From a virus, in IMG/VR virus record IMGVR_UViG_3300031857_000053, positions 32,001 through 96,000 of that record: DNA of 64,000 bases; one strand, given 5' to 3'. Shown here in pieces: positions 10,177 to 44,083 of the stretch. The number at the start of each line of letters is the position of its first letter. The first letter of the stretch is position 1. A program made the translations under genes and the position numbers. Under the pieces are notes generated by a model. That model made no database searches, was not told the DNA's origin, and saw only the letters and a program-made list of their open reading frames with translations.

Positions 10177-10178
10177 TT

Positions 10179-12785: not shown

Positions 12786-12823
12786 TATTTTAAATAAACT
12801 TTATAAGTGTAATAAACTTATAA

Positions 12824-12832
12824 TATTTTTGG
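12824..12832 (+). promoter_or_regulatory. Bacteroidota -7 promoter element (TAnnTTTG), TATTTTTGG
   Basis: In the largest intergenic gap of the structural block, 20 nt before the ATG at 12853. The same 9-mer occurs at 57003 and 59532. Confidence 0.55.
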
Positions 12833-12852
12833 ATAAATTTACAACATAAATT

Positions 12853-19400: not shown

Positions 19401-21911
19401 ACTTTATTAAAAAATTCTTATGAAAGATTTTTAAGATTAAGAAAGATGAATGATTTATTCAATCAGCTTTATGAGATGAAAGTTTTTTTAGATGAGAGAG
19501 GAATGCAAGATGTTTTAAATAATCGTGTTCCATCTATATTTTTTAATATTCCTAAAGCTAAAGATAGTATAACACCAGTATCTTTTGATTCTGAAAAATA
19601 TAGACAGATCTTAGATTTATTTGAAAAATATGAACAAACATCTGGTAAGCAATTTGAAAATAAACCAATTGTTGAAGCAATTCCATTTATTAGTGAGACT
19701 ATCAATTATAATATAGAGAATAGGGAAAAAGGAGAAGATAAAAGAACTTTAGCTGAGCATGCTGCATATTGGGGATTTGATCCTGAGATGAAAACTATAA
19801 CTTCAATTAAAACATTAGATGTTTTAAAAAAGATAGTTGATAGTCCTTATTCTACTTATAAAGAAAAAGCTTTAGCTAGAAGATTACTTACTATTGTTAA
19901 AGCTAATAGTGAAATAAAATTTGAAAAACTTTCACGTCCAAATAAAGCATTATATACCGATGAAGGAAAAATGGGAATGAGTGTAGATCCTAGATATTCA
20001 TCTTCTGATTTTGGAATTACAAAAAACTTTTCATTACCTATTGAAGCAATTATTCTTAATACAGTTATTAAGGATATTACAGCTTATGATATGTCAAAAA
20101 ATCTTGCTTTTAAAAATGATGTTGCTAAATTATTTGAAGCAGCTAAAGAAGAATTTAAAAAGAATAGACCAGCGAATGCTACTTTATTTGGAGATAAAGT
20201 TGATTTTGAATTTTATGGTTTAAGAAATCAAGAAGATTTTGTAGCGGAAGCTCTTACTAATGATCGCTTTGCAACGTGGTTAAAAACTATTGATTATCAA
20301 ACTACCGGTAAATCTGCGTGGCAAGAACTATTAGATATGCTTAGTCAATTCTTTGCAAAGATTTTAGGTATATCAAAAGATAATACTCTTTTAGATGAAG
20401 TAGTATATGTCGTTACTAAACATATTGATAAAATAGAAGGAGTTACTGAAGATAGTTTAGCTCAAGAAGCTAAATACAAAGCAGCAACTCAAGCTGGGAC
20501 AAATGTTCCAGGTGGTATATCTAAAGATAGTACTATTAACGAACTTGCTGCAGCAGGTGTTTTAAAAGAACTTGTTGCTGATTACAAAAGAATTAATAGT
20601 GAGAGACAAGTTGTAGCTCCAGATTCTGTATACGATCCACTTTATGATCAGCGTCCAGAGTCAGAGCTTATTGAAACTGAAGGATTCAAAAGATATCTTG
20701 ACTCTACATCAGCAAGTAATATTATTAGTGCTCACAATAGAAAGAAAGGTATTACTCCATCAACTACAATAACTACTCCTACTACTACTCCTGTTTCTGA
20801 TATAGAAGCTAAGAGAGCTGATATAGAAAAAAGAAGAAAAGAAAGTCTAAATGCTATTAAACAAAGACCTAATGAAACTTTGTTTACAGCTCCTTATTAT
20901 AAAGAAGGATATAATTTTAAACAGCTTCCTACAGACTCAGCTATGAGAACTGAAGCTGAAGAAAAAGAATATTATGAAATATTAAAAAACAATAATGCGT
21001 TAACTGATGTATCTATTCAAGTTAAAACTAGAGAGGAGGCTGAAAAATTAATCAACGCTAAATATGATACAGAACTAGCTGCTTTAGAAAAAGCTCCTGT
21101 TACTACTGTTGATACAACACCAGTTAATAAAAGAACTAAAGAAAGACTTCTTACTAAAGGTTATAATTATTCTGATATTGATAGTATGAATCAGCAACAA
21201 GCTGAAGCATTATTAGTAGAAGGATATACTAAGAAAGAAAAACTAGAAGCTATAGCTGCAGAAGAAGAATTGCAAAAACAAATTAAACGCGAAAAAGAAT
21301 TACTTACTAAGGTTGAATTAATGGCATCTATTATAAAAGATATTAATGAAGCTGAATATTTAACTGACCTTGCTGCTGTACAAAATAGAGTTTCAGATAT
21401 TATTAATCGTACTCCAGGTGTTTTAGATATAAATGCAATAGAAAGAGGAATTGAGTCTAAGAAAAAATCACTTAGTGCTAATATTGCTTTAGATAAAATG
21501 ATTGTTAATGAGTTTATTAGATTAGATAACAATCAATTAGTAAAAGTAATTGAAATAAATAATAATGGTATTAAAGTACAAACTACAGGAAAAATAGAAG
21601 ATGGTGCTTCTCAAGTTGAATTTTGGATTAACAAAAAACAATTTGATAAAGATCAAAGAGAACCAAATAAAAGATATGTTATGTATAAAGATCAACCAGG
21701 TATAGAAGAAGTCACAGGTATACCGGTAACTTCACAAGAAGATGTTGAATCTACAAAAGAGAATGTTACTAGTGCTAGAACATTAGTTTCTGATGAAGAT
21801 TTACAAAATGAATTTAAAGAAGTAGAATCTCAAGAAATAGTTGATCTAGAAAAGGATTTTCTTGATACCTTAGATCAGTGTTTACCGGGTAGTCAACTTT
21901 CCATTTTTTAA
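16407..21911 (+). CDS. Giant ejected protein 1 (RNAP-associated) with degenerate zincin-like domain, 1834 aa
   Basis: Gly/Ala-rich N-terminal region with an E...EGLQEV.Q motif; YGLRNQEDFVAEALTN zincin C-terminal helix at 20214-20261; single Cys near the C-terminus. Confidence 0.7.
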   Translation: MADVISEDINLSLPDPANLAASVAGGVMNPLLKESIDIDLPQPPPRYPVGVSATNMIPTQTNALTDSNSLIEQSNNSLATANQWARNPYQYGKLKTYNADSDGANFARYAAVPRVFKEQGFSLYRDNEALYNENATWWDYFKRSAGASWELFKTGFTDMLPWNAWDGKSSDLVAAKEMERWHAIGADSRSGVGSFINNMTVDSGYTFGILGEFAAEEIALWGATALSGGALGEVALTRTGKKIDDVIDALSIEKFRAKVNKAYDWMKSPDKMKDIYSYAKGTLKRAGKTLIPQTGSFIANDIIAAGKKGDLVFNMAKASKGFGAFYRDSRAVAAVLSEASLEGGSAELMVRDQLIDGFYDKNGRLPNDKEMSAIYSEAANAGRETYLWNLPALYISNQIVFETALKGFKPAAVFREELRTGLSGRLAFNEAWKKAGVKAWTTVEEGALQSFKNIFNPTTYKPKNLLRNTVGKFALYTKENLAEGLQEVYQDAVQKTMVDYYSARFTHPALSGSRSVWGEFAKNIGNPNLETFASGFLMGSMVQIPQKIAFNYLPKQFYKLTNRAEYDKNMALQQEHTDKVVDAMNYFTMGEKYYDSINENAVVQLNGNAEAQQANMAGDKKAFGDITDETEGNHFMTLLESGKLDILVDQFKDLKGLNKEALEEAFGPVDKSIAEDSYTFYQNRLDNMIKKSEQLKKLYETAEREIGDGPFHPSTVDGKKDPKLYEAMMQGAIAHKMAKRDFVLQNYSFYRTLQRVDSLTNNLVSNSELAKTSASDLMLATSPQLMVDEIAITKKLLEGYKTIEKDPDNKSKIQSLEERLEYLEELQSAIEGITVAQKLEPSRELGTQVKEIEDADKAARIDEGTVVKNKKGKEHKVSYVKKGDAYNSKGEKIGKLKDLDIVSQPEGKEEKDAMTYATERLFNAYSQWMKYSAKVNNNDNVTDRAIEKSFADFRDIYLLKQDSKFLGETIQTLLNPNYFRVYTERLRNVIADIDKSRKTLLKNSYERFLRLRKMNDLFNQLYEMKVFLDERGMQDVLNNRVPSIFFNIPKAKDSITPVSFDSEKYRQILDLFEKYEQTSGKQFENKPIVEAIPFISETINYNIENREKGEDKRTLAEHAAYWGFDPEMKTITSIKTLDVLKKIVDSPYSTYKEKALARRLLTIVKANSEIKFEKLSRPNKALYTDEGKMGMSVDPRYSSSDFGITKNFSLPIEAIILNTVIKDITAYDMSKNLAFKNDVAKLFEAAKEEFKKNRPANATLFGDKVDFEFYGLRNQEDFVAEALTNDRFATWLKTIDYQTTGKSAWQELLDMLSQFFAKILGISKDNTLLDEVVYVVTKHIDKIEGVTEDSLAQEAKYKAATQAGTNVPGGISKDSTINELAAAGVLKELVADYKRINSERQVVAPDSVYDPLYDQRPESELIETEGFKRYLDSTSASNIISAHNRKKGITPSTTITTPTTTPVSDIEAKRADIEKRRKESLNAIKQRPNETLFTAPYYKEGYNFKQLPTDSAMRTEAEEKEYYEILKNNNALTDVSIQVKTREEAEKLINAKYDTELAALEKAPVTTVDTTPVNKRTKERLLTKGYNYSDIDSMNQQQAEALLVEGYTKKEKLEAIAAEEELQKQIKREKELLTKVELMASIIKDINEAEYLTDLAAVQNRVSDIINRTPGVLDINAIERGIESKKKSLSANIALDKMIVNEFIRLDNNQLVKVIEINNNGIKVQTTGKIEDGASQVEFWINKKQFDKDQREPNKRYVMYKDQPGIEEVTGIPVTSQEDVESTKENVTSARTLVSDEDLQNEFKEVESQEIVDLEKDFLDTLDQCLPGSQLSIF
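20788..21101 (+). mobile_element. Putative in-frame insertion module (SDIEAKRADIEKRR...INAKYDTELAALE) bounded by 8-bp direct repeat CTCCTGTT
   Basis: CTCCTGTT at 20788-20795 and 21094-21101, 306 nt apart (in frame), within a Thr/Pro linker. Confidence 0.45.
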
Positions 21912-21929
21912 TTAAAAAACTATAAAGAC

Positions 21930-24900
21930 ATGATTTGTAATTTAGCTAATAATGAATCTTATAAACCTTTCCGAAAATATATCTTTAAAAAGTTATCTCT
22001 AGCTCCAGAAGGTTTTACATTAGAATCTTTTACTAAAGATATCTATAGAAAAGTATATGATAATACTACTGGTACTCCTGAAGATAAACATGCTAATGCT
22101 ATTAATCATGTTGCAATAGGAACTATATTTTTAAATCGTATTCAAGCATTAGAACCTTCAGTTTATGATACTATTAAAGATATAGATTTTAATAAATTTA
22201 TAAAACTTGTAAATAATATTAGTAAATCAGAACCTGATTTTTCTTCATTAGAAGAAATGTTAGGTTTGAAAAATAATCCTGTTGAAGAACTTAAAGAACT
22301 TAATGCTGCAGCTGCTGAATCTAGAGATAACAGTACAGCGGGTATACAGATGACATTATTTGAAGGTAGCGATATTAAAGTTAACGAAGAAGATGAACCA
22401 GCTGATACCACAAATAATAATATGGTAACTGCTACTGAAGAATATCAAGGTAAAGATACTGTTCAAGCGGATCAAGATAGAGAAACTATAAATATAGATA
22501 ATCCTAAATCTCCAGATTATTATAAAGCGAATCCTTTATATAGATTTTATTATAAAGTTAAAAGAGGTGTTTTAAAATTATTACAAAGACCAGGAACTAA
22601 TTTTGATAGTTCTCAAATTACTATTCCTTATAATGGAAAGAAAGGTGTATACTTAACAGTAATGAGTTCTAGTAAATTAAGTAGAGATGATTTTAAAGAA
22701 GATCCTACAATAGGAGGTAGCAATGATAAAAAGTTTATTTACGATGCTGGTGAACCAGTGTTTGTTTTAACTGATGTAGATGGTATTCCAGTTAAGTTTA
22801 ATGAAGAAGGTCAATTTGATGAAAATGGTAAATTATCTTATCATAAATTTAGAAATATTTATTCAACTCAAGTAAAAGATGGTAAAGTTTCTTTATACAA
22901 AAGTGCTAATCTAAATGCTTTAGATGATGTAAAAAGAGTAGATCTTTTAAAACAAAAATTAATGAAGCTTAATCCAGGGCTTAGTGAAAAAAATGCTAAA
23001 GCTCAAGCTGAAAAAACAATACTTGATCAACTTCAAATTATATATGATATTAGACAAGCTCTTAAAGCTAATCCAAATTTAATAGTTAAGACTGTTATAA
23101 ATGGTGGTTCAATGGGAGCTGTAAAAAAAGATATGAGTGTCAAAACACCTCTTGAGAATTTAACAATAGGTAATAGAGATTTTACTATTTATGCTGTAAA
23201 AAGTGATAGCGAAAATTCTGGATACACTTATACTAACACTGATGCTACAGGTTCTTATGATGTTGAAATAACTCGTCCTGATATTAGTCAAGTTGAAGGA
23301 TTAACAGATACAATTGTTTCTATATTATTTGATAAAGGTATAAGTAAAGATAAAGGAGTTTCAAAAGCTATTACTGCTGAAACTAGAAAAGAATTATTAC
23401 AAAATTATATATTTACTAGAACTGAAGGTTTAGATATGTTTGTTAATGAAGATGGTGGGTATACTGTTAAAATAGGAGGACAAGAAATTTATAGATTAAA
23501 AAATAAAAATTATACTTCAGTTGAAGAAGCTGCTCTTCTTGAAAAAAGAAAAAGTGCTGAAAAATTAGTTCGAGAATATTTTACTACGCTTGCTCCTCAA
23601 GCTGAGATCTTAGAAAAAGATCTTAATGATGTTGACATGAAAAATATAATTGAAGGAACTATTGATAAAGTTAGAGATCAATTTAAAAAAGGATATGTTT
23701 TTTATAATACAGAAAATAAAAAGTATTATAGAATAGGTTATCCTATACATCATATTAATGCTAAATATCAAAATGCTACTTATCCTGGTTTAACTCTTTC
23801 TAAAGAAGGAAACAATACAATATTTACAATTGATCGTAATGCTTCATATAATAACTATATAAAGAAAAATTTTACAATACCTTTTGAGTTAAATGAGAGT
23901 GGAGAGATTCCATCTCTTAATGCTTTTTATACTTATGAGTATGCTGAGGGTGAATTAAATAAAATATATAAGCCAGCTGAATCTACATCAGCTCAACCAT
24001 CTACTAGTGTTAAACCTGCTACTAGAAAAACATACTCTGGGAAAGTAACTAAGTTGACACTTAATCAAATATTTGTATTTGGAAGTAATCCTGAAGGAAG
24101 ACATGGTGCTGGTGCTGCTAAAGATGCTAAAGATTTATTTGGTGCAAAGTATGGACAAGGAAGAGGGATGCAAGGTCAATCTTATGCACTTGTAACTAAG
24201 AATCTTAAAGCTGGATTTGTTGAACCTAGCACAGGTATAACATATAAAAAAGCAGGAGAAAAGAGTGTTTCAAAAGAACAAATAATTGAAAACATAAAAG
24301 AGCTATATTCAGTTGCTAAAGAAAATACAAATAAAGAATTTTTAATACCTGATTACTCTAAAAGCAATCTTAATGGTTATACAGGTCAAGAAATGGCAGA
24401 TATGTTTAGTGCTGCTGGACCTATACCAAATAATATTGTGTTTCATAAAAACTTTGATAAATTAATTACTACTCAACCATCTACTAGTGTTAATCCATTA
24501 GTAGAAGCAGGAATTAAACCTTCTGATATGTTTGGTAATGCTGCTAAAGATATTCAGATGGCATCTGAATCTACTCAGTTTATTGGATTTGGTACAATAA
24601 TGAAAGAAGGTAATGTATCTTCTACAGATAAATATGCTAAAGCTTGGGGTACTAAAGCTAATACAGGAGTGTATACAGCTGGTGATACTATAATGGTATC
24701 AGGAAGTGGTAACTTTGGTAGAGGAGGTGTTGATAAAACTGTTGAAGCACAAGCTATTAGAAAAACACTTAGTGAAAAATATAAACCTTTATTAGATAAG
24801 GCTATAGAAGCAGGTGCATCTTTTAGAATTGGTAATCAATATGCAAAAGGTAATTTGTCAGATCAATTAGTTGCAGATTATTTACAAAAAAAGGGTTATA

Positions 24901-27900
24901 CTGAAGAAAAACTTAATGGTTATTCTAGATGGGTATCTCCTACCAAAACTACTCAACCATCTACTAGTGTTAATAAAGGTGTAGAAATATCTTCTAATGC
25001 TAAAGGTTTAGCAGCGGCACTCACTAATCCTACAGAGTTAGCTAAATCAAAAGGTAATATTAAACAATCTTATCCTATATATTTTCAATGGTTAGATAAA
25101 AATGGAGAAGTAAGAGATTCAAACTTTAAAGATGTTGAACAAGCTTATCAAAAATTAAAAGATAATTCTGAAGCTAAAACAAAACCTACTAAAGAAAATA
25201 GTAATAATTATAAACTAATGGTAGATTTGATAAAAGCTAAATTAGAACAACATCCCAGATTAGTTTTAGAAATAACTAAACAAGGAGGTTCAGCTTGGAT
25301 ATTATCTTCTACACATCAACCAACTAAACAAAATACTGTTTGGGAAACAGGTGGACAAAACTGGTTTATTCAAGCTCTCAATGATGCTTATTTATCTACA
25401 CAACCATCTACTAGTGTTTCTGTAGATACTAAAGCTGATATTACTTTACCTACTACACCTGATCAACAAAATACTAATTCTATTGATCAAGCTCTTAATA
25501 TTATTGATGATGCAATTAATAATTTTGATAAACTTAAAGCTTTAAAACTTATTGATCAAAAAGCTACAGTAGAACAAATAGAAGCAGCTAAAAAGTGGTG
25601 GGAAAACCATCCTATGTCTAGTAAAATTCCGCTCTATGTTTTATTCAATGCTGTTAATACTAAAAATCCAACATCAATTGCTAATTGGACATTAGATGGT
25701 ATTACACTATATCAAGGTGCTGATTACTCTGATTTGTATCACGAAGCATGGCACGGGTTTACTCAGATGTTTTTAACTAAAGAACAGAAAGAAAATCTTT
25801 ATAAAGAAGTAGGAAAAAAATCTGGTGGTTTTACAGATTATAAAGGAAACTATACTTTATTTAAAGATGCTAAACCAAAACAACTAGAAGAATATTTAGC
25901 TGAAGATTTTAGAAATTATATGTTATCTGGAGGTAAGAAGATTGCTGGTAAAGCTCCTGTTAGAAATAAAATTTTTAAGTTTATTGCTGATATATTAGAA
26001 TGGTTATTTGGAAATCTTACAAGAGAACAAATAGCTAATGGTACAGAAAGCTTAAGCACTATTCATGACTTATATGAAAAACTTCGTGTAGGTAATCTTA
26101 GTGAGTATACTTTCTCTCAAAGCAATGCTCAATATGATAAGCTTAGTAAAGGAGAGATTTTAGCTACAAGAAATACTGATAAACCTGTTGACGATATAGA
26201 TACTAAAAACTATATCTTAAATATGGTTGATTCTTTTTTATCTCAATATGTTGATAGAGTTTCTGAAGGAAAAAGAAAAAAATATATTGCTAATGCTAGA
26301 CTTCAAGCTGAAGCTAGAGGAGAAACTTTTGTAGAATCTACAGCAGAACTTTCATATAAATATACCGCAACATTATTAAAAACAGCAGAAGGTAGAAAGT
26401 TAGCTTATGGTTATGCTCAAGAAATGATTAAAGCTATTCATGATGGACTTGTATTATTACAACAAAATGAAAGTAGTGAAATTATTCGTGCTAATAGAAA
26501 AAAAATAATTGATACTTTAAGTTGGACTTATAATAACTTTGGAGATATAAATAATCTTAAAAATAATAAGATAGATAAGGAGGGTAGATTTCAAAATGTT
26601 ATTGCGTTTCATACTGCTAAAAGTAGATTATTTACTAAACAAGAAAAAGAACTTTTCTTTAGTGAAGATGCGCTTAATGAAGAAGATTTATTTTTAATTG
26701 GAAGAGATGGTTTAGGAAGTGTAGGTGGTAATGAAAAATCATCTAAAGAATTAGCATCAGAAGATATCCTTATTATGATGAATAGTTTACATGAGGTAGA
26801 TGCTAAAGGTAATACTATATATGTAGAAGGAACTGAAGTTGAAATAGAAACTAAACAAGGTGTTAAGCTTAAGATAGGTGTACCTAAGCTTCAAGATTTT
26901 GATGTTACTTGGAATATTCTATCTAAGAAATTAGAAAATAATCAAGATGCTGAGAACATGTACGCGATCTTAAGTGATCTTGCAAAGTCAAAACCTAATC
27001 TTCCATTTAAACAATTATTAAATAAACTTGGTCCAATAAAAACTGCGGGATCAGCAGAGTTTAGATTATGGACTAATTTTTGGCAAACTTTTAATTTATC
27101 TAGAGTTGGTTTAGTATATACTAAAGTTAATATAACAACTAAAACAGAGAGTAAAGGTGAGGTTAAAGAATTAAATTTTGATAATTGGGAATTTACAGCT
27201 AGACCTACTAAAGCTACCACTAGTATAAATACAATTAAAAAAAATTGGGATTATGCTTTTAGAATGAAAGATAAAGGTGATTATATCGGTAAAGATTCTC
27301 TTGGACAAAATTATCTTTTATTAGATAAGATTTTAGAAGATTTTAAAGATAATATAAAAGGAAAAGAATTTGAGTTTTTTAAAGCAATAGGTATAGATTT
27401 TGATACAAATAATGAAGATATTCTTAAAGAAGTTTCTTCTAAAAATTCTTTAGATACAGCTAAAAGAATTTATAATATTATTAAAGCTTTATCTAATGCT
27501 AAATATAAAGAAGAACCTCTTATAGGAAAACCTAAATATACTATATATGCTCCATCTCAATTATTTAAAGAAATATATGAAATAGGTGAAGATAAACAAT
27601 ATGTTTGGAAAGATAAATTTGAAATAGATTCTCAAGGTAATAGACGTAAAGTAGGAACTGAAAAAAAATTTTTAGTAGATATAGGTTATAAAACATCAGG
27701 AGAAGGAACAAGATTTGATAACTTAGCTGAAATTCAAGCTGAGTATTCTGATAAATGGGGAACTAATCAAGTTACAAATGCAGAAGGTAATACTCAATTT
27801 GATTTAACATTAAATAATTTTCTTACTGTTTTAAAGAATACACTTAATCAAGTACAAGATGTAAAAGATGCTAACGGCAAAGTTATTATACCTGCATATA

Positions 27901-30900
27901 AAGTTTTAATTAGTCTTCCATGGATGAGTAATTTAGATGTAGATAAAAATCCAGATGCTGAGTCTTCTATTTTATTAAATTCTTTATTTGATCTTAATAA
28001 AAATAGTACAAAATATGGTGAAAGAATAAAAGATGAAAAAACTAAATCTGGATATGTAGAAGTACAATTAAAAAATCTTAGTGGAGTAGCATTTAATAAA
28101 GATGATGTTTATGATGAAAAGAAATCTACTTCTTTATTTAATTCAGATCCTTTAACAAAACTAGTAGCAGATTTTCATACTGGTTTGATGAATGGAAATT
28201 TTGAGTTAATGCGTCACTCAGATAAAGGAACATCTTTTAGTTTCTTTACTACTTCTTTAGATAAAAAGAATATTAATAATAGAAATAAATATTTATATGT
28301 TGATACTGCAGATTTTGTTACAAGTTTAGGAACAAAGAATGCTATTAATAAATATATTTTTCCAACTTTAAATTCAGAATTTAAGCGAATAAAAAAGTTT
28401 AGAAATATTAAACAAGCAGTAGAAGATGCTAGAAAAGAAACTGATCCGGAAAAAAAGAAGGATATGTTTAAAGCAATTGGTAATACTGATTTTAATTATA
28501 TAGAAAAAGGATCTTCTTTTGTAACATTTCAAGGTGTTTTATCTCCAGAAACTAAAGTAAAAATACTTAAGCAACTAGATAAAAATAGTTTAACAGAATA
28601 CTTAAATACTCCAGAAGGTTTTGAATTAAAAGTTGAAATTGGAAAAGATATTCAAAATTATTTTAATAATCAAATTGAAGCTGTAAGTAAAAAGTTTCCT
28701 GTTAGAAGAAGTGGTGTTAAACTTATAAGTGGTGATATTATTAAAAAAATAAAAGATCATGTTACAGCTAATTATACTGAAGGATTAGGTCTTTCACAAA
28801 CAGGAAAAGATATACTTAGAAATACTGATTTTAATAAAGTAGCTTTAAGATCTTTTGTAATTAATTCTTGGATACATAATACTGAAAGTATCAAATTAGT
28901 TTATGGAAACCTTGCTCAATATAATATGGCTAAGGAAGAATTTCATAAGAGAAATGCTGGTTCAAGTTCTACTGGTACACTTTATAGAACTGATAAAGCT
29001 GCAATGGATTATGTAAATAATATTCTTAATGGTGGTGATACATATGCTAAATCAATAGGACAAACTAATAGATATTATGATGGAACTCTTAATACAGCAA
29101 TTGTACAAGATAGTGTTCAAAGATCTGTTTATATAGAAGATTATTCTAAAGACTTAATTGCTGAACAATTAAAAAGAAATGGTGGAAATCAACGAGAAGC
29201 TGAGAAAAAAGTTTTTGGTTACGATGAAAAAAATAATAAAGTTGGTACTCTAGAAAAACCAATTAAGGGTGGATTAATTACAGCATATACTGATATGAAA
29301 GAAGGAGATGGTCAAGGTTGGGTAACTTTTGATTCATATAGAATGCTATTAAACTTAGAAGGTAAGTGGTCAGATTCACAAGAAAATTTATATCAAAAAA
29401 TAGTAAAAGGTGAACAAGTTTCTAGTGCTGATATAGCTTTCTTTTTTCCTCCACAAAAGTTACAATACTGGGGACCTCTTGGTAACAGATTATCTGGTAA
29501 AGCTGCAATAGGACAAAAGATTAATTCTGATGTACAGCTTACAGCTATGCACAAGTTTTCTTTAGTACCACTTATTCCTACTGTAATTAAAGATAAAAGA
29601 ATTCAAAAGCTCCACGATAAGATGGTTCGAGAGCAAGTGGATTATGTAACATTTGAATCCGGATCAAAGATTAGTAATATTACAAGTGCTGAAAAGTTTG
29701 GAGAGAATGGCAAACAAACTTTTGATCTTTTTTACGCAGATAATAAGCGTAATATTAGTGAGGAACCATTTACAATCAATCCTATTTATGTAAACTATTT
29801 AAAGAATCAGTTAGAGATAGCACCTAAGTTTAAAAAGAAAGTAACTTTTTCTACTCAGCTTAGAAAACTTATTGAAGATGGTTTAGTAGAGAATGGTGTG
29901 CCAATTGATTTTGGAAGAAATTTATCTCGTGAAAAAAGAATTGAAGCTTGGGATGCTATTACAACAGAAGATGCTAAGATGGCCGCATCTCCTAAGTATA
30001 AGATCTATAAAACATATGAGAATAAATTAAAGAAACTTACCGAGCTTAAAAGAGATCAACTTTTAGAAGAGATGGGTTGGAAGATGGTGAATGGTAAACC
30101 AGTTGGTACAATAGAGAACTTAGTTAGATTTGTTAAAGCTGAATTAGAAAGACAAAATTTAGGAGATCATGAAATAGATTTCTTAGATGTAGTTGATGGT
30201 GGTACAAAGCTTAAAACAGATGCTTCATTTTCTTTGTCTGCAGATAAGATTGAAAAGTTACTTAATTCTATTGTAGTAAATAGATTGATCAAACAAAAAA
30301 TTAATGGTGAAGCTTTAATCCAAGTATCTACTGCTGGTTATGAAAATAATGAAGCTTGGGATGCAGCAAGAGGTGCTACTGAAGAAGAGTTAGAAAAGTG
30401 GGGAACAGATGATCTTCCTACTTATAGAAAAGGAAAAGATGGAATTACTAAAGCAATGAAAGTGAAAGTTGCTTTACAAGGAAAGTTTTTATCTCTACTT
30501 AATCTTAATCATAATGATGGTCAAACTATAGCTGTTTATGATATTGTTAATGGTAAAAAAGTTCTTAATCTAGAATCATCTAGAACAAGACTTAATTCCA
30601 TGATTAAAAATGAAGAGTGGTTAAATAAAGAAAATCATCGTAAGATGATTACTATGGTTGGTGTTCGTATTCCAGTACAAGGATTAAATTCTATGGAGTT
30701 TATGGAAGTATACGAATTCTTACCAGAGGAAGCAGGTAATATTATTATACCTCCAACAGAGATTGTAGCTAAATCAGGAGCTGACTTCGATATCGATAAG
30801 CTTACAGTGATGATGCCTAATATAAAAACCAAAATAAATAAAGCTAAAATTACTAATGCTTTATTAAGAGAACTTGGTGAAAAAAATCCAACTTTAGATT

Positions 30901-33900
30901 TTAGTAGAGATAATATTAATATGCTACTTGATTTTGAAAAAGGATCTGGTGGCGCATATACTCTTACCGAAGAAGATTTAAATACACTTCGTATTCTAGA
31001 AGAAACTAGTGAAGTAAGTGTAGTTTATCCTACTGGAGATAATTCTATAGAAGGATTAGAGAATGATCTTATTTGGAATATAAAAGATATTTTAGCATTG
31101 CCGGAAAACTTTGTTAATCTTATTACACCTAATAGTACTGATACAGTTCAACCAATTGCTACTAAACTTGCACCTTTAGTTAAAGATTATGATCAGATGC
31201 AGAAAACAGCTGGTGATATTACTACTTTATCTAAAGAAGATCAAGCTTTATTAAATGAGAATCCTAATGTGATGGAAGGAACTAGAGTATTGGAAATACT
31301 TTATAATATTTCTAAGCAACAGTATAATCAGATTGGTAAAGAGACTTTAGGTATTGGAGCTGTAGATAATACTTTCAATATTCTATTGAATAGAATTGGA
31401 GCTTATATGAATGCTTATGCTACTGTAAAATCATTTAATGGTAAAAATAAAACTACAATTAGACAAACATTAAAGTTTAAACATAATACTCTTAATATAA
31501 ATGGTCAAGATGTTATTTCTTTATCGCATTTATACGATAATAATGATTTAAATAGAGTTTCAGATATTATCTCTCAAATGATGAATGGTTGGGTGGACGT
31601 TGCAAAAGATGCTTGGATTTTTGATATTCAAGGTAACAAGGATCTTTCTCCTACACTTTTGTTTATGATTCAAGCGGGTGTCTCAATAGAGAATGCTATT
31701 TATATGGTTTCTCAACCTATGGTAAGAGAATATATAAGATTAAAGAAGACCGCTCAAAGTAGTGTATCAGATGTTATTACTGATGTTGATACTAAATATC
31801 CAGGTTTTGCAGCAAAGAAAATGATCATTGATAAATACTTTTCACAAGATGCAGATTTTGGTTCTCAAATTGCTGCAGCAAATGATATTATAAATGATGA
31901 AGTACGTGAAAAAAAATTAAATGCGATCTATGGTAATGTTAATGTCGCTAATACTAGTGCTGAAATTATAAATAGAGTTTTTGGTGATAATGATATTGAT
32001 ACTAAAAAGATGGAAGAGAATATTCAAAAATATTCTGCTGCTGAAAAAAATGGAGAAGATACTAATAAATTATTGTTTAATGATGAATATCAAAAAGCTA
32101 TATTTTTACATTTCTTACAGATAGAACAGATGGGATCTGCTCTTACTAATGTTAAAAAGAATATGAATTTTGACACTAAAAAAGATGCTAGTATCTATGA
32201 GGCACAAAATAGAATGGTTATGATTGATGCTCTTTCAAAAGAAGATCGATTCCCATCAAAGATGATAGATAAACTTATTACAGATTCTCCTATATCAAGT
32301 TTCTATATACAAGAATTTCAAACACAGATTTGGGAAAAATTATTACCACTTCGAACTAATGAAGTATTTAATAAATGGTTAAGTGGTAAGATGGGTGATC
32401 AAGACTTTAAAAATTATGTTGAAGAGAATTTTGGAGAAAATATGATGGAAAAAGCTATTCTTTCTTTGAGAAATAATCTTGTACCATATATATTTCAAAA
32501 TGAACTTAAACAATTTGATTTAAGAACTTTAGATGGATATAAAGGAAACATAGTTGAAATAAGTGAAAAAGGAGAAACAGAACAAGAAAATCTTACTAAA
32601 AAACAACAAAAAGAAGGAGTTAGTGTTCTAAGTATTGGAGCTTTCTTTAAAGATGGAAAAATGTTTATTGATAAAAAAAGTTTAGATAATCAATATAACA
32701 ATGCTTCTTATTTAGGTAATGAAAATAGCACTTATAAAGAATTAGGATTAGCACCAGTTAGTGTTGGAACTTTTAGTTCTTTAAGCGAATATCATCACTT
32801 TGTAGTAGAGAGAGAATATCTTAGAAATCTATATAAGAATACAGATAATGTTAAAGATAATATAGAATACAAAGAAGCTCTTAATGATGCTTTTGAAAAA
32901 AATCCAAAAGGAGAAGAAAGTGAAGATGCGTATAAAAAAAGAATAAGTAAAATTGCTTTTGAAAGTTTCTTAAGAGATAAAGCTTTAGATAATATATTTA
33001 ATAATACAAAATTATTTACAGGGAATAAAACAGCTGCAGATAAATTAGGTTATATAAAATCTCAGTATAAAGATCTTTTACAAACATATCCTGTATTACA
33101 AGTTCTTAATCCTTTATCTACAATATCTGCCGGTAAACTTTATTCTAATATACAATTACAAGATAACTTAGATGATTCAGAAAAAGTTAATTCTTATTAT
33201 AAAAATATTAGAGATCTAGCAGATCCTACCGTGGTAAAAGTTCCTGGAGATCCTGAAGCTAATAAATATATAAGTGATTTCTTTACTAGTTTACCTATTA
33301 TTGGAACATTACAATCAGGTTCTAATACTAAAACTAGATCTTCTTTTACTAGATTAATGCCTTATGATTTATATCTAAGATTAATTGAAAAACCTGCTCA
33401 AAAATATGTTGAAAATATGAGTGATCTTTTATTAGATGTTTATTATTATAAGTGGTCTCAGCAAAATTCAATCTTAAATAAAAATAAAAATAAGTTTGAA
33501 GATTATTATATTACTGAAATTACTTTAGATCGTCTTTTAAAAAGTTCTAGAAAAAATCTTGATAAAGTAGAAATAGAAAAACAAATTAGAGGTTTACAAG
33601 ATAAAAATCAAAGATTTGGATTAAGAGAAACTGAAGATATTTTTTATAAACAACCTAGTGGAGCAAGTATACTTGATACATATAAACTACTTAAAAGAGA
33701 TGATAAAGAAACTGATGAAAGCTATAATCCTAGAAAAGTTAAATATATGCGCGAGTTATTAGAAGCTAATCCTGATAAGATTTTTGTTTATAATAATGAG
33801 AAAGGTCTTGATAGATCTATACCTAAACAGGGAACATCAGATAGGTTATTTAGAAATCAAGGGCAATCTAATGCTTTTGGATTGAATACTTATAATCAAT

Positions 33901-34304
33901 ATAATCTTACAGAAACTACTTTTATTAAAGATGTTGATGGTGATGTTAATCCTAATTTTAAAATAGATTTTGATGCTCAAGTAAAAGAATTACTTCGTCT
34001 TCAAAATGAAGAAGGAAAAGAAATAGTTTTTCCATCATCTGGATTTTTACAAGAACAAATGGGTTATCAATTAGAAGAATCTAATTCTTTAGGTAAGAAT
34101 ACTTATAGTTCTATAGTAGAAAAAAAATTAGGACAAAAAACTTACGAATATGCTTCTCAAGTTTTATTTGAGAAATTTGGCTACGTTAATAGAAATTACG
34201 ATATTACACCCATTGGAAAATTAGTAATAGGAGCTAAACAAAAAGAAAGTAAATCTATTAGTGATGAAATGGTTAGAGATTTAATGTCACATTGTTATTC
34301 ATAA
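21930..34304 (+). CDS. Virion-packaged DNA-dependent RNA polymerase polyprotein (crAss-like/phi14:2 gp66-type) with zincin peptidase and accessory modules, 4124 aa
   Basis: Catalytic GADFDIDKL (DFDID at 30783-30797) preceded by RIPVQG; also DGQGW, FESGSK, STQLRK and VDVAKD motifs; HEAWH zincin at 25740-25754. Confidence 0.9.
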   Translation: MICNLANNESYKPFRKYIFKKLSLAPEGFTLESFTKDIYRKVYDNTTGTPEDKHANAINHVAIGTIFLNRIQALEPSVYDTIKDIDFNKFIKLVNNISKSEPDFSSLEEMLGLKNNPVEELKELNAAAAESRDNSTAGIQMTLFEGSDIKVNEEDEPADTTNNNMVTATEEYQGKDTVQADQDRETINIDNPKSPDYYKANPLYRFYYKVKRGVLKLLQRPGTNFDSSQITIPYNGKKGVYLTVMSSSKLSRDDFKEDPTIGGSNDKKFIYDAGEPVFVLTDVDGIPVKFNEEGQFDENGKLSYHKFRNIYSTQVKDGKVSLYKSANLNALDDVKRVDLLKQKLMKLNPGLSEKNAKAQAEKTILDQLQIIYDIRQALKANPNLIVKTVINGGSMGAVKKDMSVKTPLENLTIGNRDFTIYAVKSDSENSGYTYTNTDATGSYDVEITRPDISQVEGLTDTIVSILFDKGISKDKGVSKAITAETRKELLQNYIFTRTEGLDMFVNEDGGYTVKIGGQEIYRLKNKNYTSVEEAALLEKRKSAEKLVREYFTTLAPQAEILEKDLNDVDMKNIIEGTIDKVRDQFKKGYVFYNTENKKYYRIGYPIHHINAKYQNATYPGLTLSKEGNNTIFTIDRNASYNNYIKKNFTIPFELNESGEIPSLNAFYTYEYAEGELNKIYKPAESTSAQPSTSVKPATRKTYSGKVTKLTLNQIFVFGSNPEGRHGAGAAKDAKDLFGAKYGQGRGMQGQSYALVTKNLKAGFVEPSTGITYKKAGEKSVSKEQIIENIKELYSVAKENTNKEFLIPDYSKSNLNGYTGQEMADMFSAAGPIPNNIVFHKNFDKLITTQPSTSVNPLVEAGIKPSDMFGNAAKDIQMASESTQFIGFGTIMKEGNVSSTDKYAKAWGTKANTGVYTAGDTIMVSGSGNFGRGGVDKTVEAQAIRKTLSEKYKPLLDKAIEAGASFRIGNQYAKGNLSDQLVADYLQKKGYTEEKLNGYSRWVSPTKTTQPSTSVNKGVEISSNAKGLAAALTNPTELAKSKGNIKQSYPIYFQWLDKNGEVRDSNFKDVEQAYQKLKDNSEAKTKPTKENSNNYKLMVDLIKAKLEQHPRLVLEITKQGGSAWILSSTHQPTKQNTVWETGGQNWFIQALNDAYLSTQPSTSVSVDTKADITLPTTPDQQNTNSIDQALNIIDDAINNFDKLKALKLIDQKATVEQIEAAKKWWENHPMSSKIPLYVLFNAVNTKNPTSIANWTLDGITLYQGADYSDLYHEAWHGFTQMFLTKEQKENLYKEVGKKSGGFTDYKGNYTLFKDAKPKQLEEYLAEDFRNYMLSGGKKIAGKAPVRNKIFKFIADILEWLFGNLTREQIANGTESLSTIHDLYEKLRVGNLSEYTFSQSNAQYDKLSKGEILATRNTDKPVDDIDTKNYILNMVDSFLSQYVDRVSEGKRKKYIANARLQAEARGETFVESTAELSYKYTATLLKTAEGRKLAYGYAQEMIKAIHDGLVLLQQNESSEIIRANRKKIIDTLSWTYNNFGDINNLKNNKIDKEGRFQNVIAFHTAKSRLFTKQEKELFFSEDALNEEDLFLIGRDGLGSVGGNEKSSKELASEDILIMMNSLHEVDAKGNTIYVEGTEVEIETKQGVKLKIGVPKLQDFDVTWNILSKKLENNQDAENMYAILSDLAKSKPNLPFKQLLNKLGPIKTAGSAEFRLWTNFWQTFNLSRVGLVYTKVNITTKTESKGEVKELNFDNWEFTARPTKATTSINTIKKNWDYAFRMKDKGDYIGKDSLGQNYLLLDKILEDFKDNIKGKEFEFFKAIGIDFDTNNEDILKEVSSKNSLDTAKRIYNIIKALSNAKYKEEPLIGKPKYTIYAPSQLFKEIYEIGEDKQYVWKDKFEIDSQGNRRKVGTEKKFLVDIGYKTSGEGTRFDNLAEIQAEYSDKWGTNQVTNAEGNTQFDLTLNNFLTVLKNTLNQVQDVKDANGKVIIPAYKVLISLPWMSNLDVDKNPDAESSILLNSLFDLNKNSTKYGERIKDEKTKSGYVEVQLKNLSGVAFNKDDVYDEKKSTSLFNSDPLTKLVADFHTGLMNGNFELMRHSDKGTSFSFFTTSLDKKNINNRNKYLYVDTADFVTSLGTKNAINKYIFPTLNSEFKRIKKFRNIKQAVEDARKETDPEKKKDMFKAIGNTDFNYIEKGSSFVTFQGVLSPETKVKILKQLDKNSLTEYLNTPEGFELKVEIGKDIQNYFNNQIEAVSKKFPVRRSGVKLISGDIIKKIKDHVTANYTEGLGLSQTGKDILRNTDFNKVALRSFVINSWIHNTESIKLVYGNLAQYNMAKEEFHKRNAGSSSTGTLYRTDKAAMDYVNNILNGGDTYAKSIGQTNRYYDGTLNTAIVQDSVQRSVYIEDYSKDLIAEQLKRNGGNQREAEKKVFGYDEKNNKVGTLEKPIKGGLITAYTDMKEGDGQGWVTFDSYRMLLNLEGKWSDSQENLYQKIVKGEQVSSADIAFFFPPQKLQYWGPLGNRLSGKAAIGQKINSDVQLTAMHKFSLVPLIPTVIKDKRIQKLHDKMVREQVDYVTFESGSKISNITSAEKFGENGKQTFDLFYADNKRNISEEPFTINPIYVNYLKNQLEIAPKFKKKVTFSTQLRKLIEDGLVENGVPIDFGRNLSREKRIEAWDAITTEDAKMAASPKYKIYKTYENKLKKLTELKRDQLLEEMGWKMVNGKPVGTIENLVRFVKAELERQNLGDHEIDFLDVVDGGTKLKTDASFSLSADKIEKLLNSIVVNRLIKQKINGEALIQVSTAGYENNEAWDAARGATEEELEKWGTDDLPTYRKGKDGITKAMKVKVALQGKFLSLLNLNHNDGQTIAVYDIVNGKKVLNLESSRTRLNSMIKNEEWLNKENHRKMITMVGVRIPVQGLNSMEFMEVYEFLPEEAGNIIIPPTEIVAKSGADFDIDKLTVMMPNIKTKINKAKITNALLRELGEKNPTLDFSRDNINMLLDFEKGSGGAYTLTEEDLNTLRILEETSEVSVVYPTGDNSIEGLENDLIWNIKDILALPENFVNLITPNSTDTVQPIATKLAPLVKDYDQMQKTAGDITTLSKEDQALLNENPNVMEGTRVLEILYNISKQQYNQIGKETLGIGAVDNTFNILLNRIGAYMNAYATVKSFNGKNKTTIRQTLKFKHNTLNINGQDVISLSHLYDNNDLNRVSDIISQMMNGWVDVAKDAWIFDIQGNKDLSPTLLFMIQAGVSIENAIYMVSQPMVREYIRLKKTAQSSVSDVITDVDTKYPGFAAKKMIIDKYFSQDADFGSQIAAANDIINDEVREKKLNAIYGNVNVANTSAEIINRVFGDNDIDTKKMEENIQKYSAAEKNGEDTNKLLFNDEYQKAIFLHFLQIEQMGSALTNVKKNMNFDTKKDASIYEAQNRMVMIDALSKEDRFPSKMIDKLITDSPISSFYIQEFQTQIWEKLLPLRTNEVFNKWLSGKMGDQDFKNYVEENFGENMMEKAILSLRNNLVPYIFQNELKQFDLRTLDGYKGNIVEISEKGETEQENLTKKQQKEGVSVLSIGAFFKDGKMFIDKKSLDNQYNNASYLGNENSTYKELGLAPVSVGTFSSLSEYHHFVVEREYLRNLYKNTDNVKDNIEYKEALNDAFEKNPKGEESEDAYKKRISKIAFESFLRDKALDNIFNNTKLFTGNKTAADKLGYIKSQYKDLLQTYPVLQVLNPLSTISAGKLYSNIQLQDNLDDSEKVNSYYKNIRDLADPTVVKVPGDPEANKYISDFFTSLPIIGTLQSGSNTKTRSSFTRLMPYDLYLRLIEKPAQKYVENMSDLLLDVYYYKWSQQNSILNKNKNKFEDYYITEITLDRLLKSSRKNLDKVEIEKQIRGLQDKNQRFGLRETEDIFYKQPSGASILDTYKLLKRDDKETDESYNPRKVKYMRELLEANPDKIFVYNNEKGLDRSIPKQGTSDRLFRNQGQSNAFGLNTYNQYNLTETTFIKDVDGDVNPNFKIDFDAQVKELLRLQNEEGKEIVFPSSGFLQEQMGYQLEESNSLGKNTYSSIVEKKLGQKTYEYASQVLFEKFGYVNRNYDITPIGKLVIGAKQKESKSISDEMVRDLMSHCYS
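23994..25418 (+). repeat. Four identical 18-bp direct repeats CAACCATCTACTAGTGTT (QPSTSV) delimiting three in-frame domain cassettes
   Basis: Copies at 23994, 24474, 24954 and 25401 (spacing 480, 480, 447 nt). Copies 2 and 3 share 27 bp (ACTACTCAACCATCTACTAGTGTTAAT). Confidence 0.95.
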
Positions 34305-34307
34305 GAT

Positions 34308-37300
34308 ATGTTAGTTTGCCCAAATAAAAACACAACTGAGTGGAAAGATCTTGTAGCCACCGTAGGAGAATTTGAAGCTTTTAGAGACTTCATAGAAAGT
34401 GATTATAATATTAGAGATCCTAAAGTAGTTTTAGAAAAACTTATTAAAAGAGGTATAACTACTACTTCTGAAAAAGTTATTGAATCTTCTATTCAAGAAG
34501 TAAAACCAGGAGTACCAGAACTATTTGATTCTAATCCTGAATTAGCTAATGTTGTATATGAAGCTTTAGGGTTTATTGCAAACATTAATAAATTAAAAAT
34601 TCAAGATTTTAAAACTAAAATAGGCAACTCTGAAAATATTCAAGATGTAGTAGAAAAACTTAAAAAGTATGTAGAAGAATTTAAAGATGCTTATTTTGTA
34701 AATTCCACAAATGAAGATATTCAATCTGATATTTATTTTATAAAAAAAGAAGCAGAAGATAAGTTAAAACAATTTCAAAAAATAGACGACAATATTAAAT
34801 TTGAACTTGTTACAACAAAAGGATTATCTAATAAACAAATAGATGTATATAAATCTGTTATTGATTTTATAAGTAAAAATCCTACGGCTAACCCAAATTC
34901 TGAAAACTATAATCCTAAAGTAATAGAATCATATTTAAAATATGAGCATGAACTAACAGACAAAGAATTAAGAAATATATTTAAAGGCAAAGAAAAACAA
35001 AGGCTTTTAGATTTTATATTTTCACAATTAAGTTTAGCTCAAGCAAGTACAGAAGAAGGAATAAGTGAGTTGCCTGAAAATTTAGTAGAAAAAGAACTAT
35101 CTAAAGTAACCCCACAACAAAAACAACAAGCTCTACAACTCTACTCTCAATATCTTGATTCTATATTTCCTCAAAATACCATAGTATATAGAGGTAGTGA
35201 AAAAGGAAGAACACAATTTAATACAAGAGGATTTTTCACAGAAAAACTATCTTATGCTAAAGAATATGCCTTCGATAAGGGATTTGTTGCTAAATCTGGT
35301 GAAGGTATAGTTAATACATTCTTGATTAATACAGCTAATGTAAAGAATGTAGGAGAAATGAATACTAAATCTATAGAAAATGAAACACAAGATTCTGTGT
35401 TAAAAGGTGTAGACAAAGGTAGAGCTAGAGAATCAGGTGTAGTATATGCAACTACTTCAAAGAACTTACATGAATTAGGTGGTAAACAAGATATAGAAGG
35501 ATTTAAAGAGTTTGTTAATGAACCACAAACTATTATTAAAGAAAGTGTATCAAATCCTTTAGTAGAAGATTTTTTTAAAATTAATGAGCAGGAGATGACC
35601 ATTACTCCATTAGATACTAATAATGCTAATGCAGTAGGGGCACTAACAGCTTTAGCTACTCAATTATCAGAACAATTAGTAGTAGATGGTGAAAAATTTA
35701 AATATCAATTTATAACAGAAGAACAAGCTGCTGCTTTACTTGCTGATAGAAATGAAGAGTGGGATCCAAGTAAAAAAGCTTTTTTCGTTGGCGATACTGT
35801 TTATTTAGTTGGAACAAACCTTAATCTAAATGATGTATTCCACGAGTTCTCTCATCCTTTCCTTAGAAGTATAGCTAAAGCTAATCCACAATTATTTGAA
35901 AAACTTTATCAAACTTTAGCATCTACTCCAGAAGGACAACTTATTATAGATTTTGTAAAAAATAATTATAATGTAGAAGAAGGTAGTATCTATTTTAAAG
36001 AAGAAGTATTAGTACAAGCTCTTACTGCTATTGCAGATATAAATAGAAACAACTTAGTTCCTAGTTCAGGATTCTCAAACTTTATTAAAAATCTATTATA
36101 CCAAATAAAGCAATTTATTAGAAAAGTATTTGGATCTAAAGCTGATGCTAAATCTCCAATAAAAATATCCAGCTTAAATGAAAATACAACTTTGAGAGAA
36201 TTATCTGAAATGCTTAAGGGTGGTACCAAGTTTGAGATTGTAGAAGATAGTTTAACGGAAGAAGATTTTGTAGCTTATAATAAATCGCGTGATGAGATTC
36301 TTACAGATTTAATGAAGCTAAAACAATCAGATAAGATAGCATTAACAGTTCTTGCTCATGATACAGCTCTAAAACAAATTGAGACAGTAATGAGAAGTGG
36401 GAATTATGCTGAGATAGCTAACCTATTAGCTGATGAATTTAAGCGAGGAGATCTTAATGAGATTAAGCGTAACTTAGTAAAGTTTGCTAAGCCTATGGAG
36501 GATATGCTTCTTGATAAAAAGAATGCTATCGAATATACCAAAGCTCATGTTGAAGCTTTCATGGCTTCTCTTTTAAGGATGGATAAAATGCTTAAGACAA
36601 TAGAGAAGCATTTAGAAAGTTTGAGATCAGATATGGATAATATTGATAATCTTCAAAAAGCTTTTTATTATGATTATCTTCTTTCAGATTGGAAAAAATT
36701 TGTTGATCAATTAAGAGAAGCTGCAGATGGAGCAAGGATACCATCTGATTCCGCATTAGAAAGTTTAATATCTAGTCTTGATGGTTCAATTAGAAAAGCT
36801 AAAACATTAACTGGAGAATTTTATCAAGAAGGATCTAAAGATGTTTTATATGCTCAGTTATTACCAATGGCAGAAAAACTAGCTGAGAAGTATAGTAAAA
36901 TTTTTGAAAGTTTAAATAAACCGGGTAAGGTTGCTTCTGATAAAATACAAAATATGTACTATAAAGAGTACTATGGTATGACAAAAGCAGAACACGAGAG
37001 ACATACAACACTCGAAGATCTTAATAGAAAAGGTACTTTAGGAACACAAGAACTTAAAGAGCTTGAAGGTTTAAGATTGTTATCGATGAATGGTGCCCAG
37101 ATTACAAAATATAAAATTGAGATGGCGCTTAAGGGTACATATCGCGATGCTAATGTTTGGAACTCTTTCTTCGAAGGATATACTTTTAATACCGATCCTG
37201 TAATAGGTGGTTTTGCAACTTTTGTTAAAGATGCTATGTCGGATGCTATAGCTAATGCTATGGATAAGATGAATAATTATGCTGCAGATATGAGTGGTCT

Positions 37301-41189: not shown

Positions 41190-41214
41190 CAATAAAGAAA
41201 TTTACAAGCTTTGG

Positions 41215-41254
41215 AAAAAAAAGAAGAGAGGGAATAAACCCTCTCTTTCTTTTT
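41215..41254. terminator. Bidirectional intrinsic terminator between convergent gene blocks
   Basis: Stem AGAGAGGG (41225-41232) / CCCTCTCT (41239-41246) with a 6-nt loop, an A-tract on the left and a T-tract on the right. Confidence 0.85.
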
Positions 41255-41261
41255 AACTTAA

Positions 41262-42071: not shown

Positions 42072-42075
42072 AAGA

Positions 42076-43995: not shown

Positions 43996-44035
43996 AATGG
44001 ATTGTTCAGTTAAGCTGTTCCCCCGATTATAGATA

Positions 44036-44066
44036 GAAAAAGCGAGACATTATATCTCGCTTTATC
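44036..44066 (-). terminator. Intrinsic terminator-like hairpin upstream of polB
   Basis: AAAGCGAGA (44039-44047) / TCTCGCTTT (44055-44063), with a U-tract on the - strand. Confidence 0.65.
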
Positions 44067-44083
44067 TTCTGAGTTATTTTTGA

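Follow-up and report, generated by a model that had tools for sequence, protein, structure and literature searches.

Three consecutive genes on the plus strand of a viral genome of 107 kb encode giant proteins that we call A, B and C (Table 1). They lie in a window of 64,000 nt, positions 32,001 to 96,000 of IMG/VR record IMGVR_UViG_3300031857_000053, and positions below are those of the window unless stated otherwise. Every open reading frame (ORF) of at least 150 amino acids (aa) in the window was translated, and the cysteines were counted in each product. A, B and C together contain four cysteines in 8251 residues: C1825 in A, C3 and C4122 in B, and C4 in C. All four lie at termini that face one another in gene order, and the outer ends, the N-terminus of A and the C-terminus of C, have none. 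In what follows, a C-terminal segment carrying one cysteine is called a tail, an N-terminal segment carrying one cysteine is called a head, and the place where the two face each other is called a junction.

At the frequency found in the rest of the genome (317 cysteines in 18,993 residues, 1.67%), ∼138 cysteines would be expected in A, B and C, and the Poisson probability of finding four or fewer is ∼2e-53. The probability that four cysteines all fall no more than 10 residues from the four facing termini is ∼5.5e-10. Chance is excluded as the source of this depletion and placement. The other genes of the window encode proteins with 0.6–2.6% cysteine, and one small ORF has none. A preliminary description of this DNA had reported the same count, coordinates and cysteine-free outer ends from reading alone. 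These are borne out by translation of the ORFs and inspection of the codons, and the computational count, set beforehand as a check on that description, finds no additional internal cysteine in any of the three proteins.

Table 1. Chain proteins, their terminal cysteines and associated features, in window coordinates
Feature	Position	Strand	Remarks
Three Cys-poor proteins (1574, 868 and 1180 aa)	5452..16395	+	internal Cys pairs, no terminal Cys
Protein A, 1834 aa, chain member 1	16407..21911	+	sole Cys C1825, tenth from C-terminus
TGT codon of A Cys1825, tail Cys of junction A/B	21879..21881	+	
Protein B, 4124 aa, predicted crAss-like virion RNA polymerase with further fused domains	21930..34304	+	Cys only C3, C4122
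TGT codon of B Cys3, head Cys of junction A/B	21936..21938	+	
HEAWH (HExxH, zincin-like, motif level only), B residues 1271–1275	25740..25754	+	H1271, E1272, H1275 invariant in alignment A3
DFDID RNA polymerase catalytic motif, B residues 2952–2956	30783..30797	+	G-x-D-F-D-x-D-K-L invariant in alignment A3
B tail SDEMVRDLMSHCYS, predicted short helix (pLDDT ∼84 in a read-through model) ending two residues past Cys4122	34260..34301	+	
TGT codon of B Cys4122 (third residue from end), tail Cys of junction B/C	34293..34295	+	
Protein C, 2293 aa, last chain member	34308..41189	+	sole Cys C4; HExxH + LysM
C head domain, residues 1–50, M-x-x-C-P-N-x-N-x-x-E-W + three short helices	34308..34457	+	
TGC codon of C Cys4, head Cys of junction B/C	34317..34319	+	
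HEFSH (HExxH), C residues 512–516	35841..35855	+	E513 invariant in A1; H512, E513, H516 in A2
LysM domain, C residues 1952–1977	40161..40238	+	Pfam PF01476, E=1.3e-5, above curated cut-off

Identity of the three proteins

Judged from its sequence, B is a crAss-like virion RNA polymerase (RNAP), in agreement with the preliminary description. The segment SGADFDIDKL, reported at residues 2950–2958, has the DFDxD form of crAss-like RNAPs, and the catalytic motif of gp66 from phage phi14:2 is the same (1361-DFDID-1365; bioRxiv 10.1101/2020.03.07.982082). A profile built from B and six homologues matches the structure of phi14:2 gp66 (PDB 6VR4) with E=6e-34. By BLASTP, B matches phi14:2 g066 (1.6e-25) and crAss001 gp50 (4e-24), and tblastn returned 94 phage records, the majority of those listed being crAss-like or Flavobacterium phages. 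The profile of B alone reached 6VR4; single-sequence searches of the PDB with A, B and C gave nothing useful, and the N-terminus of B, used to look for related loci, yielded none. Around HEAWH, B has weak similarity to the C-terminal part of crAss001 gp47 (E=6e-4); the allocation of domains to the three proteins thus differs between phages.

The flanking proteins are less readily placed. C is weakly similar to crAss001 gp49 (BLASTP, 3e-7) and phi14:2 g065 (1.5e-4) and, like an orthologue of gp65/gp49, is a giant neighbour of the RNAP with a zincin-like HExxH motif. A matches no PHROG or Pfam family and gives no BLASTP match to phi14:2 g067 or crAss001 gp47; it agrees with gp67/gp47 in position and cysteine pattern only. 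In effect, the locus resembles phi14:2 gp67-gp66-gp65 and crAss001 gp47/gp50/gp49 in its homologous RNAP, weakly homologous C and identical terminal-cysteine pattern. Unlike those systems, its proteins are highly divergent and much larger (4124 aa for B versus 2180 aa), and they are known from a metagenomic contig. In phi14:2 and crAss001 the three corresponding proteins are found in virions; phi14:2 gp66 is translocated into the host, and in certain phages these three proteins form one fused polyprotein (bioRxiv 10.1101/2020.03.07.982082; PMC10172136).

Homologues of C carry varied effector domains according to Pfam, including ART-PolyVal (PF18760), NADAR (PF08719), zeta/AAA_33 kinases, PDDEXK and LysM. 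In combining such domains over 1300–3800 aa, they resemble the polyvalent proteins of phages and conjugative elements, a class recognized here by Pfam labels and reportedly described by Iyer, Burroughs, Aravind and co-workers in 2017. To our knowledge, neither an obligately N-terminal cysteine-bearing head domain nor any pairing of terminal cysteines has been described for polyvalent proteins. A module of ∼140 aa in C (residues 265–405; window 35100–35522) is 81–87% identical between otherwise divergent phages. It is found in C here, in the last protein of relative G002 and in the C-terminal part of the RNAP of relative G003 (residues 4021–4161), and so appears to be a highly conserved domain moving among chain members.

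Terminal cysteines across relatives

The pattern recurs in three related lineages, in phi14:2 and, apart from one internal cysteine, in crAss001. In G001, A has 3029 aa with C3026, B has 3514 aa with C3 and C3512, and C has 2103 aa with C4. In G003, G004 and G005, A has 2232 aa with C2231, B has 4674 aa with C4 and, as its final residue, C4674, and C has 1150 aa with C4. The A proteins of G001 and G003 are positional counterparts of A in the window, each with a single cysteine, at its C-terminal end. In phi14:2, the sole cysteine of g067 is its last residue, C1797, followed by C3 and C2179 in g066 and C3 in g065. In crAss001, gp47 has only C2339 and gp49 only C5, and gp50 has C5 and C2404 together with an internal C1334.

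Across 80 viral contigs we compared 68 distinct same-strand ORF junctions, and both the tail and the head cysteine are present at 61 of them. The tail cysteine lies in the last 1–9 residues, mostly third from the end, and the head cysteine at residues 3–6, mostly residue 4. Of the remaining seven junctions, five lie between ordinary downstream genes, one involves a frameshifted B and one a mis-called start. The terminal cysteines, whose conservation the preliminary description had set as a check, are indeed retained in relatives, including phi14:2 and, with the one extra internal residue, crAss001. In all seven complete homologues of B, the upstream ORF ends in ..GC or ..GCK and B itself begins M-x-C or M-x-x-C. 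Some chains contain inserted link proteins of 252–689 aa, which always have a head and a tail cysteine and no internal one; in L098 the chain reaches five proteins. The first protein has no head cysteine in the complete chains examined (this genome, G001, G003, phi14:2 and crAss001), and the last protein has no tail cysteine in every chain.

Two kinds of variant bear on which termini would be partners. First, phages with only two terminal cysteines keep the upstream tail and the downstream head (Fpv3 gp32 C4286 and gp33 C3; G002 C5022 and C4; and, in the unrelated phage A4, gp27 C1715 and gp26 C5), which fits pairing across the junction, not self-closure of B or pairing of A with C. Second, comparison of L049 with L055 (IMGVR_UViG_3300005758_000578 and 3300043470_000217) reveals insertion of a 583-aa gene at a point 27 codons short of the RNAP gene's end. 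This 583-aa link carries the old 27-residue tail of B beside the head of C, and B has a new cysteine-bearing tail facing the cysteine-bearing head of the link. A similar-looking insertion distinguishes L081 from L080. We considered that L049 and L055 might differ by a split of B and rejected this, since the link is an insertion that took over the 27-residue tail. Junction cassettes, each comprising tail, stop codon and head, seem to be the units of exchange.

These variants also weigh on the possibility that terminal cysteines form links out of gene order, whether to the portal, capsid wall or phage tail, by self-closure of B together with an A–C bond, or between copies of the same protein. 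Cysteine counts alone cannot fix the topology of a chain of three or more proteins, and Fpv3 gp30 and extra tail-bearing proteins of Intestiviridae have no obvious neighbouring partner. The virion of crAss001 contains disulfides, with many inter-protein ones in its tail (PMC10172136). We nonetheless regard out-of-order linkage as unlikely. Independent anchoring would not predict the cysteine-free outer ends, the numbers of heads and tails are equal in most genomes, and the two-cysteine systems retain exactly the upstream tail and the downstream head. Link insertion leaves an old tail beside an old head and brings in a new tail–head pair, in L049/L055 as in L081/L080, and the bond solved in phage A4, described below, joins the products of consecutive genes.

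The constraint behind this pattern acts on the protein. Cysteine codons at the junctions are mixed (96 TGT and 26 TGC), gene spacing ranges from −13 to +19 nt, the cysteine shifts by several residues, and crAss001 gp47 keeps its tail cysteine even though its gene is on the opposite strand from gp50. This evidence of codons, spacing and strand excludes a nucleotide-level cause, for example translational coupling or a DNA motif at the junction. At the protein level, tails of B follow the consensus [ST]D..V.D.M..C plus 0–4 residues in 40-odd homologues and are predicted to be helical. In a single-chain AlphaFold2 prediction that continues in frame through the stop codon between B and C (tail of B, Q for TAA, D, then the head of C), the tail helix and junction score ∼77–84 for predicted confidence (pLDDT). 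The A/B junction has motifs different from those of B/C, namely a tail ..N.GC(K) and a head M-x-C-x-L..QQ. The tail of A in this window (LDQCLPGSQLSIF) is atypical when set against the ..N.GC(K) of its relatives.

Cysteine scarcity taken on its own may have another origin. In phage N4 the polymerase is of the T7-like single-subunit kind, whereas crAss-like phages have the two-barrel type. Like the block described here, the Schitoviridae locus (N4 gp50-52, DEV gp71-73) combines a giant virion RNAP with a cysteine-poor block, in a proteome with ∼0.9% cysteine (PMC11445570). In N4-like phages the ejected proteins are cysteine-suppressed, and passage past periplasmic disulfide-forming enzymes was proposed as the cause (PMC11445570). 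By analogy, passage past an oxidizing periplasm would be a published alternative explanation for the purge of internal cysteines from A, B and C. Unlike in Schitoviridae, where cysteine is almost wholly absent, one conserved cysteine is kept here at each facing terminus.

Could depletion be all that is selected, with the terminal cysteines as leftovers or a by-product of gene boundaries? Suppression of cysteine is documented for N4 gp50 and DEV gp71-73 (PMC11445570), yet leftovers would be placed at random, and they are not. A set of 120 homologues of C from the database (257,706 residues) includes 90 with a single cysteine; a cysteine lies among the first 11 residues of 108 proteins and the last 10 residues of 18. 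Of all 162 cysteines, 126 are terminal, the 36 internal ones amount to 0.014% of residues, and C4 is invariant. The C4 column is indeed invariant in alignments A1, A2, A5 and A7, of which A1, with 40 sequences, is too divergent for use as a search query. A boundary effect would have to accommodate the use of both codons and the varied spacing, as well as crAss001 gp47, which obeys the rule without being adjacent to gp50. Moreover, Schitoviridae homologues are almost free of cysteine (0.00075% in gp71 homologues), so depletion alone leaves no terminal cysteine. We consider depletion alone an extremely improbable account of the terminal residues.

The head of C is confidently predicted to be a folded 50-residue domain. 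In an AlphaFold2 (AF2) model of residues 1–350, the predicted local distance difference test (pLDDT) score is 89–97 for residues 1–50 and confidence is low beyond them; a Foldseek search of the PDB with this model, poor past residue 50, gave no match at E≤0.001. A profile of the head domain searched against 1.84 billion proteins found 726 matches. In 144 of the 147 matches examined, the domain starts at residues 1–6 with a cysteine within the first nine residues. By this sequence survey the head domain appears to exist essentially only as a free N-terminus. Internal, fused copies account for the other three matches; one has tyrosine in place of cysteine, and one keeps the cysteine in a doubtful short ORF. 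The 128-aa database protein P0180 is the one match with 26 residues before its head domain, and it has tyrosine at the cysteine position (MVYPNKNLKEW). It could be explained by a wrongly called start together with a change from Cys to Tyr, or by a head that is truly internal and lacks cysteine.

This distribution matters for the suggestion that the cysteines serve no linkage and instead act in regulation or processing, for example as a cysteine switch for latent HExxH zincins, or are relics of cleavage sites in an ancestral polyprotein. B and C do contain HExxH motifs, and it has been proposed that fused polyproteins are cleaved and that a zincin domain may activate the RNAP (bioRxiv 10.1101/2020.03.07.982082). 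However, terminal cysteines occur also in the 252–689-aa links and in A, which has no HExxH motif. Such roles would not explain why the cysteines keep strictly to particular ends or why heads and tails match in number, no internal head copy that keeps its cysteine at a fused junction was found apart from the one in the doubtful ORF, and a relic would not stay invariant at 20–50% sequence identity. Such roles are thus very unlikely.

A possible reducible link between consecutive proteins

A solved structure offers a precedent for bonding of this kind. In the pre-ejectosome of cyanopodophage A4, determined by cryogenic electron microscopy, the helix at the C-terminus of gp27 enters gp26 and is stapled there by a disulfide between gp27 Cys1715 and gp26 Cys5 (PMC12002296; PDB 9K2V, 9K3A). 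In the A-4L genome the two genes are consecutive, C1715 is the only cysteine of gp27 (1717 aa) and C5 the only one of gp26 (1114 aa), and five gp26 homologues each have one cysteine, at residue 3–5. As at the present locus, large ejection-protein genes follow one another, with a cysteine near the upstream C-terminus and another near the downstream N-terminus. Unlike the present locus, A4 is a T7-like podophage of a cyanobacterium and has one link, not a chain, and no RNA polymerase is involved. In that publication the bond is a detail of a single structure and is not put forward as a general rule (PMC12002296). BLASTP of C against A4 gp26 and of A against gp27 gave E>1. A candidate homology of C with gp26, based on a local hhalign motif (GDAN..., DPV.G), was rejected (7.6% probability against the single gp26 sequence, and 0.6% with a five-sequence gp26 profile). 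Since no homology to gp26 or gp27 was found, the A4 precedent is an analogue.

Because the comparison across relatives and this solved analogue point the same way, the joining of A, B and C through their terminal cysteines is strongly supported, as far as comparison and analogy reach. Our reading is that each tail docks on the next head and that their two cysteines join in a covalent bond that can be reduced, most probably a disulfide; we give it a probability of roughly two in three. A, B and C would be cargo packed inside the capsid, each junction consisting of a short C-terminal tail with one cysteine and an N-terminal head with one cysteine. The product, A-S-S-B-S-S-C, would be a virtual polyprotein of ∼8250 residues with one continuous N-to-C polarity. 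Other cysteines would be selected against, which would avoid mispairing or trapping by periplasmic oxidoreductases during ejection. With links only 1–10 residues from the chain ends, the joined chain might be thin enough to pass, partly unfolded, through the phage tail, each protein drawing the next one through. In the reducing cytoplasm the links would open, and the three proteins could separate without a protease. We infer the disulfide chemistry at this locus, the 1:1:1 chaining, the threading through the tail and the release by reduction from the pattern and its analogue.

The preliminary description had proposed that disulfides or metal sites join the proteins in the order A(C)-(N)B(C)-(N)C. 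The joining stands, strongly supported by comparison; the metal option finds no conserved extra ligands. In that version, facing cysteines would share a bound zinc, copper or iron ion and the bridge would be lost in the cell. In the present sequence (MSHCYS), as in a few relatives, the tail cysteine follows a histidine, and the HExxH motifs of B and C make it probable that zinc is present in both proteins. But only one residue per terminus is conserved: the histidine gives way to other residues in tails such as KKCF, NKCF and KNCK, and a second ligand is missing from the head (C-P-N). A pair of thiolates by itself is a poor zinc site, and the sole solved example, that of A4, is a disulfide. 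A metal bridge is therefore quite unlikely.

The proposed link bears on how podophages release megadalton cargo, including a polymerase of 2000–4000 residues, in the right order. For crAss001, the ejection order was suggested to be set probably by packing and mutual interactions (PMC10172136). A reducible end-to-end tether, if real, would provide a mechanism for co-packaging at fixed stoichiometry, ordered threading and protease-free release. More broadly, crAss-like phages might join three to five giant cargo proteins, the RNAP included, head to tail by single disulfides into a reducible virtual polyprotein. Its modules would specify order, and the megadalton thread of one polarity would exit as a unit and separate by itself in the cytoplasm. 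The A4 pair would be the same device, either convergent or very ancient among podophages. We advance this generalization tentatively and rate it somewhat below an even chance. Full-text literature searches, whose coverage left out most subscription journals, found no description of a terminal-cysteine rule in crAss-like phages. Neither the crAss001 structural atlas (PMC10172136) nor the phi14:2 RNAP preprint (bioRxiv 10.1101/2020.03.07.982082) mentions cargo cysteines.

Exceptions and neighbouring genes

Several observations weigh against a covalent link between consecutive proteins. Direct chemical or structural evidence of the link was found neither for this phage nor for any crAss-like phage, and A, B and C have no detectable homology to A4 gp27 or gp26. 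Adjacent segments are co-inherited; many of the 61 junctions therefore do not represent independent events. Assembly takes place in the reducing cytoplasm, and no phage thiol oxidase or thioredoxin was found, the Erv1 search being a weak negative as it was also blank in control genomes. The bond would therefore have to form in the capsid interior or under the conditions that follow lysis.

Individual genomes also depart from the pattern. Fpv3 gp30 has an unpartnered Cys5. In G002 the cysteine-bearing tail motif (..LEIKKC-GPGGG..) lies 397 residues before the C-terminus. Intestiviridae (crAss002 and a p-crAssphage relative) have two tail-bearing proteins for one head, which comes into view only on shifting the RNAP start to an internal MSC; their RNAP retains 6–7 internal cysteines.

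The 5419-aa ORF of G002 (IMGVR_UViG_3300021167_000098, 28029-44288, minus strand) contains the internal tail motif (..SDIFNDLEIKKC), a GPGGG linker and then the 397-aa extension. It has no head cysteine, and the protein upstream of it has no tail cysteine; the next protein, of 584 aa, is free of cysteine and the last protein keeps Cys4. In the two Intestiviridae records, L110 15774-28049 (p-crAssphage relative C0531BW4) and L111 16074-28811 (crAss002 gp33), the annotated RNAP starts lie 21–32 codons upstream of the internal M-S-C, and one of them is non-ATG (ILLYIS...). The second tail-bearing proteins of these records, one of 1304 aa with C1303 and the other gp30 with C550, have no obvious head partner. 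If the terminal-cysteine rule holds, the MSC methionines would be the true starts, which suggests that both RNAPs are annotated too far upstream. As an annotation rule, a terminal cysteine would mark the true starts and ends of these giant genes.

Cysteine depletion at the present locus reaches three genes upstream of A, a point missed by the preliminary description. The six-gene block from 5452 to the end of C has 8 cysteines in 11,873 aa, or 0.067%, versus 1.67% elsewhere. Its three upstream proteins contain none (1574 aa, 5452-10176), two (868 aa) and two (1180 aa), and they are probably further cargo or ejection proteins outside the terminal-cysteine chain. In the interval 10179-16395, the 868-aa protein has C461/C475 (CX13C) and the 1180-aa protein C128/C134 (CX5C). 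The latter two keep their positions in the homologue from G001. In G003, the homologue of the 868-aa protein has CxC...CxC instead (C444, C446, C463, C465). All cysteines of the block thus form close pairs or lie at facing termini, so that each has an obvious partner.

The onset of the depletion, at the gene starting at 5452, is sharp. Just upstream, a 1717-aa protein (299-5452) has 24 cysteines (1.4%) and matches PHROGs of virion structural proteins. Further upstream, at 8057-16091 of the virus record, PHROG matches identify a terminase (5e-67), a portal (1e-87) and a major head protein (1.5e-31), the genomic context of a tailed phage. No near-identical DNA was found in the phage collection, and ARAGORN found no tRNA or tmRNA gene in window positions 1-64000. 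Downstream of C, the GC skew changes sign near 41–44 kb, where gene orientation flips.

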